From a candidate division WOR-3 bacterium (GTDB lineage Bacteria > Hydrothermota > Hydrothermia > Hydrothermales > JAJRUZ01): a stretch of DNA of 64,000 bases. Position numbers and translations under genes: made by a program. The notes under the pieces were generated by a model, which had not been told where the DNA came from, ran no database searches, and saw nothing but the letters and a program-made list of their open reading frames with translations. Of this stretch, positions 43,122-50,892 are shown one piece after another. Where the stretch lies: assembly GCA_024277525.1 (NCBI GenBank), contig JAJRUZ010000058.1:2767-66766 (forward strand), given 5' to 3'. Within the stretch, counting starts at the first letter, position 1, and the number at the start of each line of letters is the position of its first letter.

Positions 43122-44789
43122 TTGCTTAAAAAAATAGTTTCTTATCTTGAAGAGAAAGCGGAGAAAATTAATGAGATTAATCTTTTATTTTATGTCTTTT
43201 CTTTTCTTTATTTAAGACAACTTTTAGAGACAGCTTTGGCATGGAACATGAGAATAGGAACATCTCTAATTTTCTGGAACGGGGTTCGTCTTTTGCTGTT
43301 AGATTATCCCATTTTTTATTTGAATGCCTTTTTGCTTATTGCTCTTTTAGTCTCTTGGTTTCTTAAAGAAGACAGAATCAAAATATTAAAACTTGTTTTT
43401 CTTTTCACTCCATGGGTCTTATTCCCTCCTCTCTGGGATTTTTTAATTCACGGTGGAGGATTCAAATACTATTACATTATTAAAACCGAAGAAGTTTTAA
43501 AAAGTTTATTAAAAGACCCTTGGACCCAGTACGGACTGGGGTTCTCTCAGGGACAGTTTATTGAAATCGCAGGAGCCTCTGTTTTCGGTTCCCTTTATAT
43601 TTATTTAAAAAATAAAAAATTGAAAGCCCTTTTATTTTTACCTCTACCTTTCTTAGGGATTGTACTTCTCGGCTCGCCTTTTTATATTTCTTTAAAATTA
43701 TTCGGAAAAATGGTCTTCGGAAGAGGAGGATTTCTTTATTATAACTTAGATAAAGTTCTTATATATAACATCATTTTACTTATCATACTTTCGGGATTTT
43801 TTCAGAATTTTTCTATTTTAAGACTCAATTTTAAATTTACTCCTCTGGTATTTTTTCTCATATTCGGATGGATAACAGCCTGGCATAAGACCGATTTCTG
43901 GTCCCTTTCCTTTTTTGATGCCTTTTCCCTTCCTTTAATGATTTTTGTTTTACTTATAGAACGCAATTCCGTTTTATCATGGTTTATTTCCCTTTCCATT
44001 TCTTTTGCCTTAGAACAGGTTCCTTTCATATTTTTAACCGGGTATTTTCTTTTTGAATTAGCCTCTATTGATAAAAATATCAAAGAAGGATTACTTTCTT
44101 TGTTTGCCTTTTATGCAGGAGCAGGTTTTTTTCTTAAAACAAGGGTTCACTTCGCATATCCCTTTTATTATCCATTTGTTATTTCTTTATTATGGGTCAT
44201 CTTTTCTAAATTTTTTCAGAAATACAAGTGGGTCTGTATACTTTTACTTTTTACAGGATTTTTATTCAAAAAAAGTTCTATTTTCAAACCTTTTCCTTAT
44301 ATGACCCTTCTTGAAGAAATAGAATATAAATATACTCTCACCCAGGACCCTGCATATTTATACGACTTATGGAGTTTGTATATGAAAATAGGGAAATTAA
44401 AAAAAGCAAATGAACTAACAAAATCTTTCCCCTTTGAATATTCTCCTGCTGATTATTACGGTAAAAAAGCAGATATATCTTTATTAAAAGGAGATGTCTT
44501 ATTAGCAGAGCAAGAGGCACTTAAATCATTACCCCTGGGCAATCCTTTCGCCCTTTTAACACTCGGGCATGTTTATTATATTAAAAATGATTTAGAAAAG
44601 GCTTTGAAATATTTGAAAAGAGCACATTCCTTGAAATTAAATCCTGAAAGAAGTTTCTTTCTCTTAATAATGAGTTTTTTAAACAAAGGAGACACTGTTT
44701 CTGCTTTAAATACGCTGAAACGCATGGAAAAATGGAATCCAGAAAGTCCGGTTTATAAAAAATTGGCTGAGAAGATATTAATGAAATAA
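43122..44789 (+). CDS. Polytopic membrane protein with C-terminal TPR repeats (glycosyltransferase-39/TMTC-like architecture)
   Basis: 555 aa. TTG start. About 11-12 TM helices, then TPR-like repeats (…LLTLGHVYYIKNDLEKALKYLKRAHSLKLNPE…). Confidence 0.5.
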   Translation: MLKKIVSYLEEKAEKINEINLLFYVFSFLYLRQLLETALAWNMRIGTSLIFWNGVRLLLLDYPIFYLNAFLLIALLVSWFLKEDRIKILKLVFLFTPWVLFPPLWDFLIHGGGFKYYYIIKTEEVLKSLLKDPWTQYGLGFSQGQFIEIAGASVFGSLYIYLKNKKLKALLFLPLPFLGIVLLGSPFYISLKLFGKMVFGRGGFLYYNLDKVLIYNIILLIILSGFFQNFSILRLNFKFTPLVFFLIFGWITAWHKTDFWSLSFFDAFSLPLMIFVLLIERNSVLSWFISLSISFALEQVPFIFLTGYFLFELASIDKNIKEGLLSLFAFYAGAGFFLKTRVHFAYPFYYPFVISLLWVIFSKFFQKYKWVCILLLFTGFLFKKSSIFKPFPYMTLLEEIEYKYTLTQDPAYLYDLWSLYMKIGKLKKANELTKSFPFEYSPADYYGKKADISLLKGDVLLAEQEALKSLPLGNPFALLTLGHVYYIKNDLEKALKYLKRAHSLKLNPERSFFLLIMSFLNKGDTVSALNTLKRMEKWNPESPVYKKLAEKILMK

Positions 44790-44791
44790 AT

Positions 44792-47020
44792 TCATATAAT
44801 ATTTTTTAATTCCTCTGAATATTTTATTATCTGAAGGGCTTTCTTTTGGATTTGCCGAGCCAGATATACTTCATGATGATTTAAACATTCTTTTATAAAT
44901 TCAATAAATTTTTTTTCCATTTCAAATATAATTCCGAGTCTTACATCTTCACTCCACCGGTCATACATTTTTTTAAAAGGCTCTCCCCTGATAAGGGAGA
45001 ATGCTTTTAAGAATTCTTTCTTAGACGATTTCCAGTCATCTGCTCTTTTTAAATTTGCCCGTGAGATCCTCTGTTTAAACTCAGAATAATCAGTGGTGAA
45101 ATATATTCCTTTATTTATTAAAACCCGAACCCTTCCTCTCCAAGAGATTTTAATGAGGTGTCCGGGAATTTTTAATAATTTTTTCAGTCTAAATAAAACA
45201 GCAGATAAACTGCGTGAAGGTTTTAAACTGTTATACCAGAAATTATTATAGAGAGATTTAACAGGAATTTCTTTGCCGGGCTCTCCTGCTCTCAATACAA
45301 AATGAATAAGAAAAGCGGCATCCTTGGGATATAATTTTGCTTTTATGCGTTTATGGTTTTTATAAATGACTAAGGGTCCCAAGAATTTCAAGGTATATAC
45401 AGGTATTTTTTTGTTAAAGATAGGCAATTTCAGGATGAAATGGGGTAACCCTGTATCTTCACCTTTCTCAAGCAGTTTTATAACCGGTAAAGGAAAGAAA
45501 AATATGTTAAAATATATAACATCTTCATGTCCCTTTTGTTTTGCAAATTTTATAGCCTTTTTATAAAAACTCAATTTTCCTGTCCTCTGTGCTTCCCTGA
45601 GTAAGAACACAATATAGAGATGGGGTATTTTCTTTTCTTTGTTTGTAAAGGGAATGTTTTTATTCATCAAAAGAGCGCAATATAACATGTATTTTCGGAG
45701 TCCAAATTTCTCCATGAGCTCGTAATTCTGGTTAAGCAGTTCAATTGCTTGCTCTTCTTTATTAAGTGCTTTATATACAGAAGCCATTTTAAGAGAAGCT
45801 ACATTTATATAATGAAGATATTGAAGCCTATCAGAAAGGTCAAGGGTTTCGGCGAGATAATGCAAACACTCTTCCAAGTTTCCGCGAAAGAATGCACAGT
45901 TTGCTCTTGCAAGTGAGAGAGCCGAGCCGGAACCGACTAAATTTTTTTCTGCTTTTCTTATACATTTCTTTGCCTCATCAACCCTGCCTTTTCCGGAAAG
46001 GGAGACTGCAAGTTTTTGTAAAATAATCCCCCTCATTTCGCCCTTTTCTACTTTAAGGAGTCTTTTCAAAATATTTATATTTTCACCGCATTCCCTGAGG
46101 TGTGAATGAAAAGAAGCAATCGCGCGTTCATAAAAAGGATAAGGAAGAAGGGGAAGCAATTCTTTACATTTTGATAACATTTTATATGCTTTTTCCTCAT
46201 CACATAGAAAAGAGGCAGTGGCCCCGATATGAAAATAAAAAATGAATTTAAGAGCAGGCTCCTTTATTCCGGACATCTTTTTTTTGAGAAGAGGTAAAAG
46301 TTTTTCCAATTCCCTTATATTGCCCATCCAGTGAAGTGTAAGAATCTCCAAGAATAATGTTTTAAGCGCAGAATAGTTTAATCCCTTCTTTTCAAATTTT
46401 TTTCTTAAATTCTTCAATTTTTCATAATATTCGGGAAACGGAATCTCCCTGAATAAAATTGAAAGTTTATCAAATTTTCTTCGGTCCGAAAGGTATTCAT
46501 CCGGAATTTTCTTCAAAATCATAACTTTCGGACAGGATGGCAGATTACTGAGCAATAAACCGGCTTTTTCATAATCACCGTTTTTTACATATTCCTTTAC
46601 CTCCGAAACAATTTTCATTGACTCTGCTGTTTTTTCTCCGAAAAATTGATATGGATTTTCTCTACTCCTTCCCGTAAGTGCATATCGCTTCCATATATTC
46701 CATATCCCTTTTACTGAAATTTCAATTCCATCCTTTTTAAGAATTTCTCTTGCTTTTTTGATAGTTAAAGAGGGGTCCTTTTCTTTCAGAAACATAACCT
46801 TGTGTTCAATTTCATCAGATGTTCTGTTCCATGCTCTTTTATATATTCTCTTTCTTTTAAGCCCATCAATTCCGTTTTCTTTATACCATCTCACCCACCT
46901 GTGAACCGTTTGATAAGGAATTTTGAAAAAACGGGAAGTCTGTCTCAGAGCCTCTCCGTTTTTTAGATAATATTCTATTATTTTAATCCTTTTTTTAAAT
47001 AATTCATCCGTTTTGTTCAT
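44792..47020 (-). CDS. Chimeric transcriptional regulator: IS630/Tc1-type transposase paired HTH (no DDE domain), TPR-like helical region, then C-terminal OmpR-type winged helix plus BTAD (SARP-like)
   Basis: 742 aa. N-terminus ALRQTSRFFKIPYQTVHRWVRWYKENGIDGLKRK plus a second HTH. Middle region has TPR-like repeats. C-terminus has KLYPKDAAFLIHFVLRAGEPGKEIPVKSLYNNFW...LSAVLFRLKKLL (trans_reg_C-like) followed by a BTAD-like helical tail. Confidence 0.55.
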   Translation of the reverse strand: MNKTDELFKKRIKIIEYYLKNGEALRQTSRFFKIPYQTVHRWVRWYKENGIDGLKRKRIYKRAWNRTSDEIEHKVMFLKEKDPSLTIKKAREILKKDGIEISVKGIWNIWKRYALTGRSRENPYQFFGEKTAESMKIVSEVKEYVKNGDYEKAGLLLSNLPSCPKVMILKKIPDEYLSDRRKFDKLSILFREIPFPEYYEKLKNLRKKFEKKGLNYSALKTLFLEILTLHWMGNIRELEKLLPLLKKKMSGIKEPALKFIFYFHIGATASFLCDEEKAYKMLSKCKELLPLLPYPFYERAIASFHSHLRECGENINILKRLLKVEKGEMRGIILQKLAVSLSGKGRVDEAKKCIRKAEKNLVGSGSALSLARANCAFFRGNLEECLHYLAETLDLSDRLQYLHYINVASLKMASVYKALNKEEQAIELLNQNYELMEKFGLRKYMLYCALLMNKNIPFTNKEKKIPHLYIVFLLREAQRTGKLSFYKKAIKFAKQKGHEDVIYFNIFFFPLPVIKLLEKGEDTGLPHFILKLPIFNKKIPVYTLKFLGPLVIYKNHKRIKAKLYPKDAAFLIHFVLRAGEPGKEIPVKSLYNNFWYNSLKPSRSLSAVLFRLKKLLKIPGHLIKISWRGRVRVLINKGIYFTTDYSEFKQRISRANLKRADDWKSSKKEFLKAFSLIRGEPFKKMYDRWSEDVRLGIIFEMEKKFIEFIKECLNHHEVYLARQIQKKALQIIKYSEELKNII

Positions 47021-47196
47021 AAAAAGGCGGAAAATTATAAGGAGATTTCTTTAAAAAAATCAAATAAAAATTTAAATTGATGAAATCATTGAGCCACGAG
47101 CAAATCAGAGTATGTAAATAGCCCGATTTTATGAACAATTTGATTTATTATTTTTATATAAGGTTCAAATCCTTTTTAAATTTAGGAGAATTAAAA

Positions 47197-50100
47197 ATGG
47201 TGAATATTTTTATAATGTTCTTATTTGTATTTGACACTCCGAATCCTGCCCCGCAAAATGAATTTCTCCCTTATAATAGCCCGAAAATCGTTTCTGAGCA
47301 TCCTGATTTTTCTTTATTTTCCTCGGTTTTGCCGAAAAAAGAGCAAGTTTTTTTCGGGCTTCCTGAAGATTTTATAGTAAATGATGACACATCAGGATAC
47401 GGAACCCATCAATATTCACCTGCAATTGCAGTGGATTCCAGGGGAAATTATGTTATTGTATGGAGGGATTCAAGATACGGCGGTGCCCCTTATGTAATTA
47501 TGATGAGAAGGTTTGATAAATTTGGTAATCCCCTTGGTTCTGCAATTCGTGTAAGTGAAAATCCCTCTATAAATACAGACGAAATGTCTCCTGATGTTGC
47601 AATTGACTCTGCTGGTAATTTTGTTGTTGTGTGGCAGGATTCCCGAAATGGAACCATCATGGCACAACGCTTTGATGCGGAAGGAAACAAAATAGGAACA
47701 AATTTTCGAGCAGACAATTCTGAGGGAATAAGTACTGGACAGAATTCTCCATCCGTTGCAATGGACCCTGCGGGCAATTTTATAATAGTGTGGCGGGGAT
47801 ATGCAGGCGGTTATTACATATTTGCGCAGATGTGGGACCCTAAAGGAAATCCGATAGGAAATAATTTCAGAGCGGACAATAATCAGGGAGTATCCCCTCA
47901 ATCATCTCCGGATATTGCTGTTGATTCTTCTGGAAATTTCGTTGTTGTATGGGTGGATACATCGGAAGGCTCAGGGATACTTACTGTCCGTTTTCAAAGA
48001 TGGCTTAAAGTAGGATTCCCATTAGATGCTGCAATCAGAGCGGATAATAATCAAGGAAAAGCACCTCAATATGACCCTGTGATTGCAATGGACCGCGAGG
48101 GCAACTTCGTTGTTGCGTGGAGGGACACAACAGCAGGATACGGACAATGGAGAATCAGTGCCCAAAAATGGTCAGCAGCCGGAAACCCGGTTGACACACT
48201 TTTCAGAGCAGATAATTTGGAAGGAACTTCATATCAATATTATCCCTCAACAGCATTTTTACCAAACGGAGATTTCATTATTGCTTGGCAGGACAGAAGC
48301 TCCTATCCTTATTTAATAATGGCACAGAGGTGGACCTTTTGGACAAATACCCCGATTGGGACAAATTTCAGGCTTGATAACGGCGAGGGAACCGGTATCC
48401 AGTCTTATCCGGATATAGCATTCCTCTCGGAGATGGACAGATTCATAGGTGTGTGGCAGGATAGAAGAATCACTGGGTCAATATATCGGATATACGGGCA
48501 AATATGGGATTCTACGGTTGCATCAGGAAGTAATATATTGATTGATGAGAACAAAGGAGATATATATCAGTATTATGCAAGTTGTGCCATGGATTCCGCA
48601 GGGAATTCGGTTGTAGTATGGGTAGATTACAGAGAAGGCTCGGCTTATATTTATGCTCAGAGATATGATGTTAATGGAAATCCTATCGGCACAAATTTCA
48701 GGGCGGATAATGGCAGAAACCGTAGAAGTGAATACTCACCCTCTGTTGCTATGGATCCGACCGGGAACTTTGTTGTTGTATGGAGGACTTCTTACCCTTA
48801 TTACATATACGGTCAACGCTGGGATGCCAACGGCAATCCGGTAGGAGATACCTTCCGGGCTGATAACTGGACAGGGGACCCCGGGCAATACACCCCGGAT
48901 GTCGCAATGGATGCAAATGGAAATTTTGTAATTGTATGGTATGACACATCATTAGCTGGCTACACAAACTTTAGAATCACTGCTCAAAAATGGGATGCTA
49001 ATGGAAATCCTGTGGGAACCCTTTTCAGAGCAGACAACGGGGAAGGAACAGCGGTTCAGTTTTCCCCGATAGTAGAAACAGATGCAATAGGGAATTTTGT
49101 GGTTGCCTGGGTTGACGGAAGAGAAGGGCGGTATAAAATTTATGCTCAGAGATGGGACCTTAATGGACTCGCAGTAGGAACAAATTTTAGGGCAGATAAT
49201 AATGGAAGTGAAATTTATTCTTCTCAATACGAGCCGAGCATAGGAATGGATAATGCAGGAAATTTTGTAATTGCGTGGAGAGAGTATTACAGCGGACAAG
49301 ATAGAATACGAGCGCAAAGATGGAATTCTGCGGGAACTCCACTGGGTTCAAACTTCCGTGCAGACAATGGAGAAGGAACAAACACACAAAGGTTTCCGAG
49401 CGTTGCTATGCATCCGCAAGGAACACGCTTTGTCATATCCTGGCTTGACCAACGCTATCCGGATTGGGATATAATCGCACAAGTATGGGATGATTCAATA
49501 CCCATCGGGAATAATAAATTGATGAACAATGACCCCCTTCCTTTTGCACATCAGAGAGGTTACAGCAAAAAAGCAATTGCATTTAAAAATAATAAAGTGA
49601 TGCAAGTATGGGAAGACAGCAGAAGAGGAAAAAATTGGGATATTTATGCAAAAATTATTCCACTGGAACCTCCGATAGGTCCGCCCACACTTATTTCTCC
49701 CTCTGATAATGCCTATCTAAATAACACTGCAACTATTTTTCATTGGTCAAAGGTCCAAAATGCTTTCTCCTATGAATTCCAATTATCACCCGATTCTTTA
49801 TTTTCTGCATACTTGAGCTTTGAAACCGATGATACTTTCTTTATCCAAAGTCTACAAGAAGGGGGCTATTACTGGCGTGTTAGAGCGGTATCATTTGTAA
49901 ATGTCAAAAGCTCATGGTCTGAAACTTGGAAATTTGAAGTGGATTTAACCGCCCCTGATGCACCCGTGCTCAATTTCCCGACAAACGGCATATGGCTCGG
50001 AGATACTGCGATATCTTTTGACTGGAGCCCGGTAACTTTCTCTTCACAAAAACAAATCCTAAAAGATATAGAAATTCTTTCAAGCGCACCCGTACATTAT

Positions 50101-50892
50101 ATTATTCAGATAGATACACTCCTCTCCTTTACAACCCCTGTTTATGTTGATACCGTTGATGTCACTCCCCTCACGGTTACACTTCCTTATCATCTCGTTT
50201 ATTTCTGGAGGGTAAAAGCTTTTGATGACGCGGGAAATACAGGAAATTTCAGCCCTGCTGACTTTTTCAGAATAGATACAATCCCCCCGCTCATTGACTC
50301 TACAACCCGATATCCAAAAGCAGTAGCCTCTTCGGGTCCTTTCCCGATACAAACATGGGTCTGGGATAATGCAGGAGTTGATACGGTTTATCTTGCTTAT
50401 AAAAGACAAGAAGATACCGACTGGATTTTAACACAAATGCAACACATCGGAAATAACTGGTTCACAGATACAATTCCTTCCGTAAGTCAACAGGATGATA
50501 CGATACAATACTATATTCTTGCAAAAGATATCACGCTTCCGGCAAATATATCTTCTGATCCGAAAAATGCTCCTACCCTCTTTTATTCATTTATCGCAAA
50601 TACTGTCTCGGTGTCAGAAAACTCCTCAACGGGTCAAAAATTTTCTTTTACCCTCTTAAAAAATATAGGCAACAAATTTATATTTAAGCTGTTTTTACCA
50701 AAAGAAGACAGAATTATACTCCGCATTTTTGATGCCTCTGGTCGATTGATAGGTTCCCCGATAAAAGGTGTTATAAAAAGAGGTAATGTAAAAATTATAT
50801 GGACACCGTCAAATAAAAAAAGTGGTATTTATTTTTATCATCTTAAAAGTTATTATGGAAAATATCAAGGAAAGGGGATAATAATAAAGTAA
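47197..50892 (+). CDS. Giant secreted repeat protein: signal peptide, about 14 propeller-like tandem repeats, two FN3-like domains, and a T9SS C-terminal sorting domain
   Basis: RBS GGAG lies 8 nt upstream of ATG 47197. Signal MVNIFIMFLFVF. Repeat consensus: SP-x-VAMD-x-x-GNFVVVW-x-D...IYAQRWD-x-x-GNP-x-G-x-x-FRADN-x-x-G. FN3-like YYWRVRA and YFWRVKA. C-terminal RIFDASGRLIG...GIYFYHLKSYYG...IIIK. Confidence 0.7.
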   Translation: MVNIFIMFLFVFDTPNPAPQNEFLPYNSPKIVSEHPDFSLFSSVLPKKEQVFFGLPEDFIVNDDTSGYGTHQYSPAIAVDSRGNYVIVWRDSRYGGAPYVIMMRRFDKFGNPLGSAIRVSENPSINTDEMSPDVAIDSAGNFVVVWQDSRNGTIMAQRFDAEGNKIGTNFRADNSEGISTGQNSPSVAMDPAGNFIIVWRGYAGGYYIFAQMWDPKGNPIGNNFRADNNQGVSPQSSPDIAVDSSGNFVVVWVDTSEGSGILTVRFQRWLKVGFPLDAAIRADNNQGKAPQYDPVIAMDREGNFVVAWRDTTAGYGQWRISAQKWSAAGNPVDTLFRADNLEGTSYQYYPSTAFLPNGDFIIAWQDRSSYPYLIMAQRWTFWTNTPIGTNFRLDNGEGTGIQSYPDIAFLSEMDRFIGVWQDRRITGSIYRIYGQIWDSTVASGSNILIDENKGDIYQYYASCAMDSAGNSVVVWVDYREGSAYIYAQRYDVNGNPIGTNFRADNGRNRRSEYSPSVAMDPTGNFVVVWRTSYPYYIYGQRWDANGNPVGDTFRADNWTGDPGQYTPDVAMDANGNFVIVWYDTSLAGYTNFRITAQKWDANGNPVGTLFRADNGEGTAVQFSPIVETDAIGNFVVAWVDGREGRYKIYAQRWDLNGLAVGTNFRADNNGSEIYSSQYEPSIGMDNAGNFVIAWREYYSGQDRIRAQRWNSAGTPLGSNFRADNGEGTNTQRFPSVAMHPQGTRFVISWLDQRYPDWDIIAQVWDDSIPIGNNKLMNNDPLPFAHQRGYSKKAIAFKNNKVMQVWEDSRRGKNWDIYAKIIPLEPPIGPPTLISPSDNAYLNNTATIFHWSKVQNAFSYEFQLSPDSLFSAYLSFETDDTFFIQSLQEGGYYWRVRAVSFVNVKSSWSETWKFEVDLTAPDAPVLNFPTNGIWLGDTAISFDWSPVTFSSQKQILKDIEILSSAPVHYIIQIDTLLSFTTPVYVDTVDVTPLTVTLPYHLVYFWRVKAFDDAGNTGNFSPADFFRIDTIPPLIDSTTRYPKAVASSGPFPIQTWVWDNAGVDTVYLAYKRQEDTDWILTQMQHIGNNWFTDTIPSVSQQDDTIQYYILAKDITLPANISSDPKNAPTLFYSFIANTVSVSENSSTGQKFSFTLLKNIGNKFIFKLFLPKEDRIILRIFDASGRLIGSPIKGVIKRGNVKIIWTPSNKKSGIYFYHLKSYYGKYQGKGIIIK
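47416..49660 (+). repeat. In-frame tandem degenerate repeats (about 50-56 codons each, about 14 copies) inside the giant protein gene
   Basis: Recurrence of the GNFVVVW / FRADN / SP motifs at a 150-170 nt period in the translated frame. Confidence 0.6.

Follow-up and report, generated by a model that had tools for sequence, protein, structure and literature searches.

A 742-aa protein encoded in a 64,000-nucleotide stretch of WOR-3 DNA (henceforth the window) is composed of three modules: a transposase-type helix-turn-helix (HTH) head, a MalT-like TPR body and a C-terminal SARP tail. It belongs to a family of regulators of an undescribed kind, found in an uncultured WOR-3 lineage. What is new about this family is the transposase-type head, which stands in place of an NTPase, and so are its lineage and its putative targets; the order of a TPR region followed by a C-terminal SARP module is not unique to it, as it also appears in uncharacterised MalT-like AAA-TPR-SARP proteins. 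The open reading frame was found exactly as described in the original prediction, which had been made from the sequence alone, and all three of its domain calls (transposase-type paired HTH, TPR, and winged HTH with BTAD) proved right on profile and fold evidence. The features discussed below are as follows.

44792..47020, minus strand: regulator gene, 742 aa, ATG start, stop codon at 44792-44794 (ORF list)
46661..47020, minus strand: head, bipartite transposase-type HTH, residues 1-120, with HTH1 at ~3-58 and HTH2 at ~69-112 (Pfam, NCBIfam, family profile)
45431..46627, minus strand: TPR/MalT-like all-helical superhelix, residues 132-530 (AF2 secondary structure, profile and Foldseek matches)
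45092..45415, minus strand: OmpR-type winged HTH, residues 536-643, recognition helix at residues 601-616
44795..45091, minus strand: BTAD-type helical activation domain, residues 644-742 (SARP fold matches, Pfam BTAD in relatives, hhalign)
47021..47196, no strand: shared divergent intergenic region (sequence; no Rfam family)
47029..47063, minus strand: regulator promoter, -35 TTGATT (47063-47058), 18-nt spacer, -10 TATAAT (47039-47034) (promoter scan)
47033-47029, minus strand: TTTCC downstream of the regulator -10 (sequence)
47133..47151, plus strand: candidate activator box GAACAA (47133-47138), 7 nt, -10-like TATTAT (47146-47151) (sequence)
47197..50892, plus strand: divergent repeat protein, 1231 aa (1253 from the ATG at 47131), with PDIAV-type repeats and Ig-like domains (ORF, NCBIfam)
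about 50674-50886, plus strand: putative C-terminal sorting domain of the divergent neighbour (HMM from related loci)

Domain architecture and family

The two-HTH head of IS630/Tc1 type was confirmed by three Pfam families above their gathering scores, namely HTH_28 (residues 10-58, 9e-11), HTH_32 (residues 38-110, 1e-8) and HTH_23, with HTH_Tnp_IS630 matching weakly (0.0035). The NCBIfam transposase models IS481 (2.4e-13) and IS630 (1e-12) matched the protein over their first ~110 positions only, and the N-terminal parts of the IS481, IS630 and IS3 models each matched all 25 of 25 family members (best scores 1.2e-19, 4.9e-14 and 3.9e-12, respectively). The family profile additionally matched the IS3-type protein Cgl2762 as well as the RED (1.9e-4) and PAI (0.055) subdomains of Sleeping Beauty. 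The predicted lack of a catalytic domain and of flanking inverted repeats was likewise borne out: a DDE/rve domain gave no Pfam or NCBIfam match in the 742-aa protein at E<=1, and between 44300 and 47500 we found no convincing inverted repeats, only short, imperfect matches of 14-32 nt that were 71-94% AT-rich. No plasmid homologue of the regulator was found either. Because the DDE domain, the inverted repeats and a plasmid homologue are all absent, we rejected the reading of this gene as a mobile element. The term "domesticated" for the head implies a direction of descent, from transposase to regulator, that we infer.

The TPR body was only evident beyond the single sequence. Specifically, Pfam TPR matches at residues 332-446 stayed below threshold, while the family profile matched consensus TPR proteins (CTPR) and MalT domain III at 3e-7 to 9e-6 (8.8e-6 for MalT domain III), and Pfam TPR_MalT was present in 4 of 10 family members. 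The AF2 model of the full-length protein (pLDDT 93.1, pTM 0.87) is all-helical in this region; a Foldseek search with it was dominated by TPR proteins, with matches to APC subunits, Rap, NprR and MalT III. The model and the family-profile matches together bear out the TPR-like helices originally read from the sequence. A Walker A motif (GxxxxGK[ST]) was absent in 72 of 72 family members, and the only match to an AAA family in the 742-aa protein was a weak one to AAA_lid_14 (0.0073).

The C-terminal tail has an OmpR-type winged HTH with a BTAD domain directly after it, as seen by fold comparison and hhalign; LSAVLFRLKKLLK sits in the winged-HTH recognition helix (residues 601-616). Of the Pfam searches that had been proposed as a check, those for HTH_23 and HTH_32 succeeded, and those for Trans_reg_C and BTAD failed on the window protein alone (no match at E<=1), for which even the NCBIfam AfsR match was weak (0.008). 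Pfam BTAD was found in 14 of 26 family C-termini (best 2.3e-5), the window protein not being among them. It was profile-profile and structural evidence that identified the tail. The family profile is colinear with Trans_reg_C plus BTAD of other proteins (hhalign 94-97%), the C-terminus alone aligning with those domains of the metagenomic protein P0004 at 94% (E 9e-8). The proposed structure prediction agreed: in fold comparisons, the tail of the AF2 model aligned with the SARP domains found in AfsR and EmbR over 193-206 residues, covering both sub-domains. Sequence-profile searches of the PDB returned only TPR proteins for the whole family and no SARP match for the C-terminus, so that among the PDB comparisons fold comparison alone identified the SARP module.

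An exhaustive search was needed to reveal the family, as a word-indexed search with the whole protein returned one relative only and a word-indexed search with the A1 profile returned only distant BTAD/TPR proteins. With a threshold of E<=1e-3, the exhaustive search yielded 191 representatives, i.e., a family of ~190 clusters (50% identity), of which 128 at E<1e-30 are nearly all 700-790 aa long, with matches starting at residue ~130-145. The full-length architecture is kept in more than 100 clusters at 27-43% identity. Named family records are WOR-3 or mislabelled relatives, and related loci carry the labels WOR-3, "Cloacimonadota" or unclassified MAG; exact-sequence contig look-ups for P0001 and P0002 gave no match. 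Mean identity across the family was highest in HTH2 (46%) and the winged HTH (44%) and lowest in the TPR body (21%), as expected for fixed effectors combined with a variable sensor.

The divergent cargo gene and its promoter

The divergent neighbour contains four stretches matching NCBIfam PDIAV_lipo (1.8e-15). Its putative C-terminal sorting domain fell below the cut-offs of the public models (TIGR04183, E 0.045; PF18962, E 0.11) and was matched at residues 1182-1252 (1.9e-8) by an HMM that we built from related loci, whose own neighbours reach Pfam significance for this domain. The window ORFs that were scanned include no gene for T9SS machinery. The expected linkage of the regulator to secreted cargo was recovered in the genome neighbourhoods: of 17 related loci in which the upstream neighbour is complete, 16 have there a divergent gene for a beta-propeller/repeat protein with a Por_Secre_tail/FlgD_ig-type (i.e., T9SS-type) domain at its C-terminal end, the exception being L012, whose first neighbour has no sorting domain. 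By comparison, 3 of the ~55 ORFs in the window (about 5%) are sorting-domain genes. The similarity of regulators showed no correlation with that of their cargo proteins (rho -0.01). The 176-nt intergenic region described originally holds if the neighbour starts at the ATG at 47197, which is preceded by the Shine-Dalgarno sequence AGGAGA at 47184-47189; it shrinks to 110 nt if the longest ORF start, at 47131, is used. An Rfam scan of 44000-48000 returned nothing credible.

The promoters on the two sides of this region differ in kind. A near-consensus layout, TTGACA-N17/18-TATAAT-(N)TTTCC, was present in 19 of 19 family genes examined, most of which start almost leaderless (in the window, the regulator ATG lies 13 nt after its -10). 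As consensus sigma-70 promoters precede the regulator genes, the host RNA polymerase must read canonical elements. By contrast, a good -35 is generally absent from the cargo promoters, a pattern typical of activator-dependent promoters.

A candidate activator site was found in these cargo promoters. ACAC[AG]A-N7-TAnnnT occurred in 6 of 22 cargo promoter regions compared with 3 sites in 554 kb elsewhere, and the broader ACAYRA form, which precedes the -10 by 7 bp, in 11 of 22; these counts come from a pattern that was defined, then widened, after viewing the data, and from 22 loci several of which are phylogenetically related. About half of the cargo promoters have no visible box. The window box, GAACAA, is a degenerate version (4/6) outside the tested patterns, though GAACAA-N7-TATTAT is identical in locus L017. 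As mismatch-tolerant k-mer counting was swamped by AT-rich words, we used a composition-aware test instead, in which ACACAATT was the most enriched non-SD 8-mer in cargo promoters (p 5e-9). No motif attributable to the transposase-type head was found in the cargo promoters by k-mer tests.

The direct repeats bound by SARPs have a spacing of 11 or 22 bp. The proposed scan of 47021-47196 for such repeats gave nothing convincing: this region contains no clear SARP-style direct repeat, only the single degenerate box, and just two loci (L006 and L018) show a second copy 11 bp upstream. In published SARP sites, the 3' repeat lies 8 bp from the -10 and overlaps the -35 (PMC10936776); by analogy, the position of the cargo box appears to match this geometry, in particular that of the AfsR downstream repeat. 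We also considered whether the box could be the -35 of an ECF-type promoter (GAAC) or part of a Bacteroidota -33/-7 promoter, and rejected both because of the 7-nt spacing to a -10-like hexamer with no TAnnTTTG after it.

Proposed function and alternative readings

The position of the 742-aa protein suggests that it regulates the cargo gene. We consider it probable that it is a cytoplasmic one-component transcription factor whose SARP tail activates the adjacent cargo promoter, with the TPR body as a sensor and the head making a second contact. In this mechanism, the SARP module would bind the box that precedes the -10 of the divergent promoter by ~7 bp and, by analogy with AfsR, would contact RNA polymerase, replacing recognition of the -35, of which that promoter has no good copy. 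As a result, the neighbouring gene or genes for secreted repeat/beta-propeller proteins with a T9SS-type C-terminal domain would be switched on. The poorly conserved MalT-like TPR body may be the signal-sensing or self-inhibiting part. The bipartite head would provide the second DNA contact, the likeliest site being the highly conserved, nearly leaderless promoter of the regulator itself or its vicinity, where this contact could serve autoregulation or tether the protein to the intergenic region between the two genes.

The same protein and target could be imagined with the opposite sign, i.e., as a repressor or autoregulator acting on the cargo core promoter and on its own promoter until released by a TPR-sensed signal. 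At about -25 to -20, the conserved box falls within the core promoter, and a repressor, too, would be well placed at a site between -35 and -10; the conserved TTTCC just downstream of the regulator -10 could be another repressor seat, and a few SARPs, e.g., Atr32 and FarR4, are indeed repressors (PMC10972967). We nonetheless regard repression as unlikely, given that nearly all characterised SARP modules activate, that the box position agrees with the AfsR downstream repeat (PMC10936776), and that the weak cargo -35 set against the TTGACA of the regulator points to activation. Similarly doubtful, in our judgement, is an arrangement in which the HTH pair of the head is the sequence-specific binder and the SARP tail serves mainly for RNA polymerase contact or dimerisation, the ACAYRA box then being read by something else or not being a SARP site. 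Across the family, conservation peaks in HTH2, usually one copy of the box is visible with no direct repeat, and in the alignment loci that have the box hardly differ from those that lack it in the recognition helix of the winged HTH. Against this, the OmpR fold of the winged HTH is complete and its recognition helix conserved, the geometry of the box agrees with SARP sites, and the cargo promoters carry no motif attributable to the head.

Finally, the gene might lack any regulatory tie to its neighbour, being a decayed insertion-sequence gene or a chance fusion beside a member of an abundant gene class. The NCBIfam matches of the head are to transposase models only, and these genomes commonly contain sorting-domain genes. 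This explanation is already contradicted by family-wide conservation, as the architecture, with its confidently predicted fold, persists in the >100 divergent clusters; the DDE domain and terminal inverted repeats are absent, the pairing with sorting-domain genes (16/17) far exceeds the background of about 5%, and promoters are conserved on both sides. We therefore consider it very improbable.

A more elaborate version of the favoured activator mechanism, to which we assign a low likelihood, is that both DNA-binding ends cooperate on the shared intergenic region. The head would sit on a fossil transposon-end-like sequence at its own TATAAT-TTTCC promoter and autoregulate, the SARP tail would activate the cargo gene, and the two promoters would be bridged or looped under the control of a TPR-bound ligand. 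If true, the family would constitute a dedicated, paralog-per-locus control of T9SS-type cargo in WOR-3, with a logic analogous to the way in which Bacteroidota regulators control polysaccharide utilisation loci. The regulator family does not overturn known mechanisms; it offers a concrete, testable handle on cargo-gene control in an uncultured lineage, and it clearly exemplifies, in bacteria, the reuse of a DNA-binding domain of transposase type by a regulator.

Comparison with known regulators

SARPs have been treated as an actinomycete speciality with an N-terminal module, whereas here we find a large, coherent candidate-phylum family with the module at the other end; its members also have a DNA-binding head of transposase type, and their link is to secreted T9SS-type proteins, not to antibiotics. 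In described small, medium and large SARPs alike the module is N-terminal (PMC10972967), as in AfsR, ActII-ORF4, DnrI and EmbR; in the present regulator it occupies residues 536-742, and an NB-ARC/NOD ATPase is absent. The hosts (actinomycetes vs. WOR-3) and the known or putative targets (biosynthetic/secondary-metabolite clusters vs. neighbouring genes for secreted repeat proteins) differ as well, and the similarity to SARPs is too low for Pfam to detect Trans_reg_C or BTAD in the window protein.

The closest parallels in domain order are the metagenomic proteins P0003, P0004 and P0006 (AAA - TPR_MalT - Trans_reg_C - BTAD), in which TPRs are likewise followed by a C-terminal SARP module; hhalign against P0003 is colinear from TPR through BTAD (97%, query 296-739 vs. 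624-1023). These STAND-type proteins start with an AAA_16/AAA_22 NTPase where our family has the transposase-type HTH pair and no Walker A, and the present regulator is ~300 residues shorter. More generally, it has in common with STAND/MalT-like regulators a TPR superhelix followed by a C-terminal DNA-binding effector, but not their P-loop NTPase (NOD).

Two consecutive three-helix HTH motifs like those of the head are found in IS481, IS630 and IS3 transposases (cf. the paired-like PAI-RED domain of Tc1/mariner); in our family they are fused to ~620 residues of regulator with no sign of mobility. RRNPP regulators (Rap, NprR, PlcR) also place an N-terminal HTH before a TPR superhelix, which in their case binds a ligand, and Foldseek matched the full model to Rap and NprR with TM 0.47-0.60 on the target. 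This TPR similarity is generic: the RRNPP HTH is of the XRE type, different from the head described here, no signalling peptide gene was seen, and RRNPP proteins lack the SARP tail that the WOR-3 family carries.

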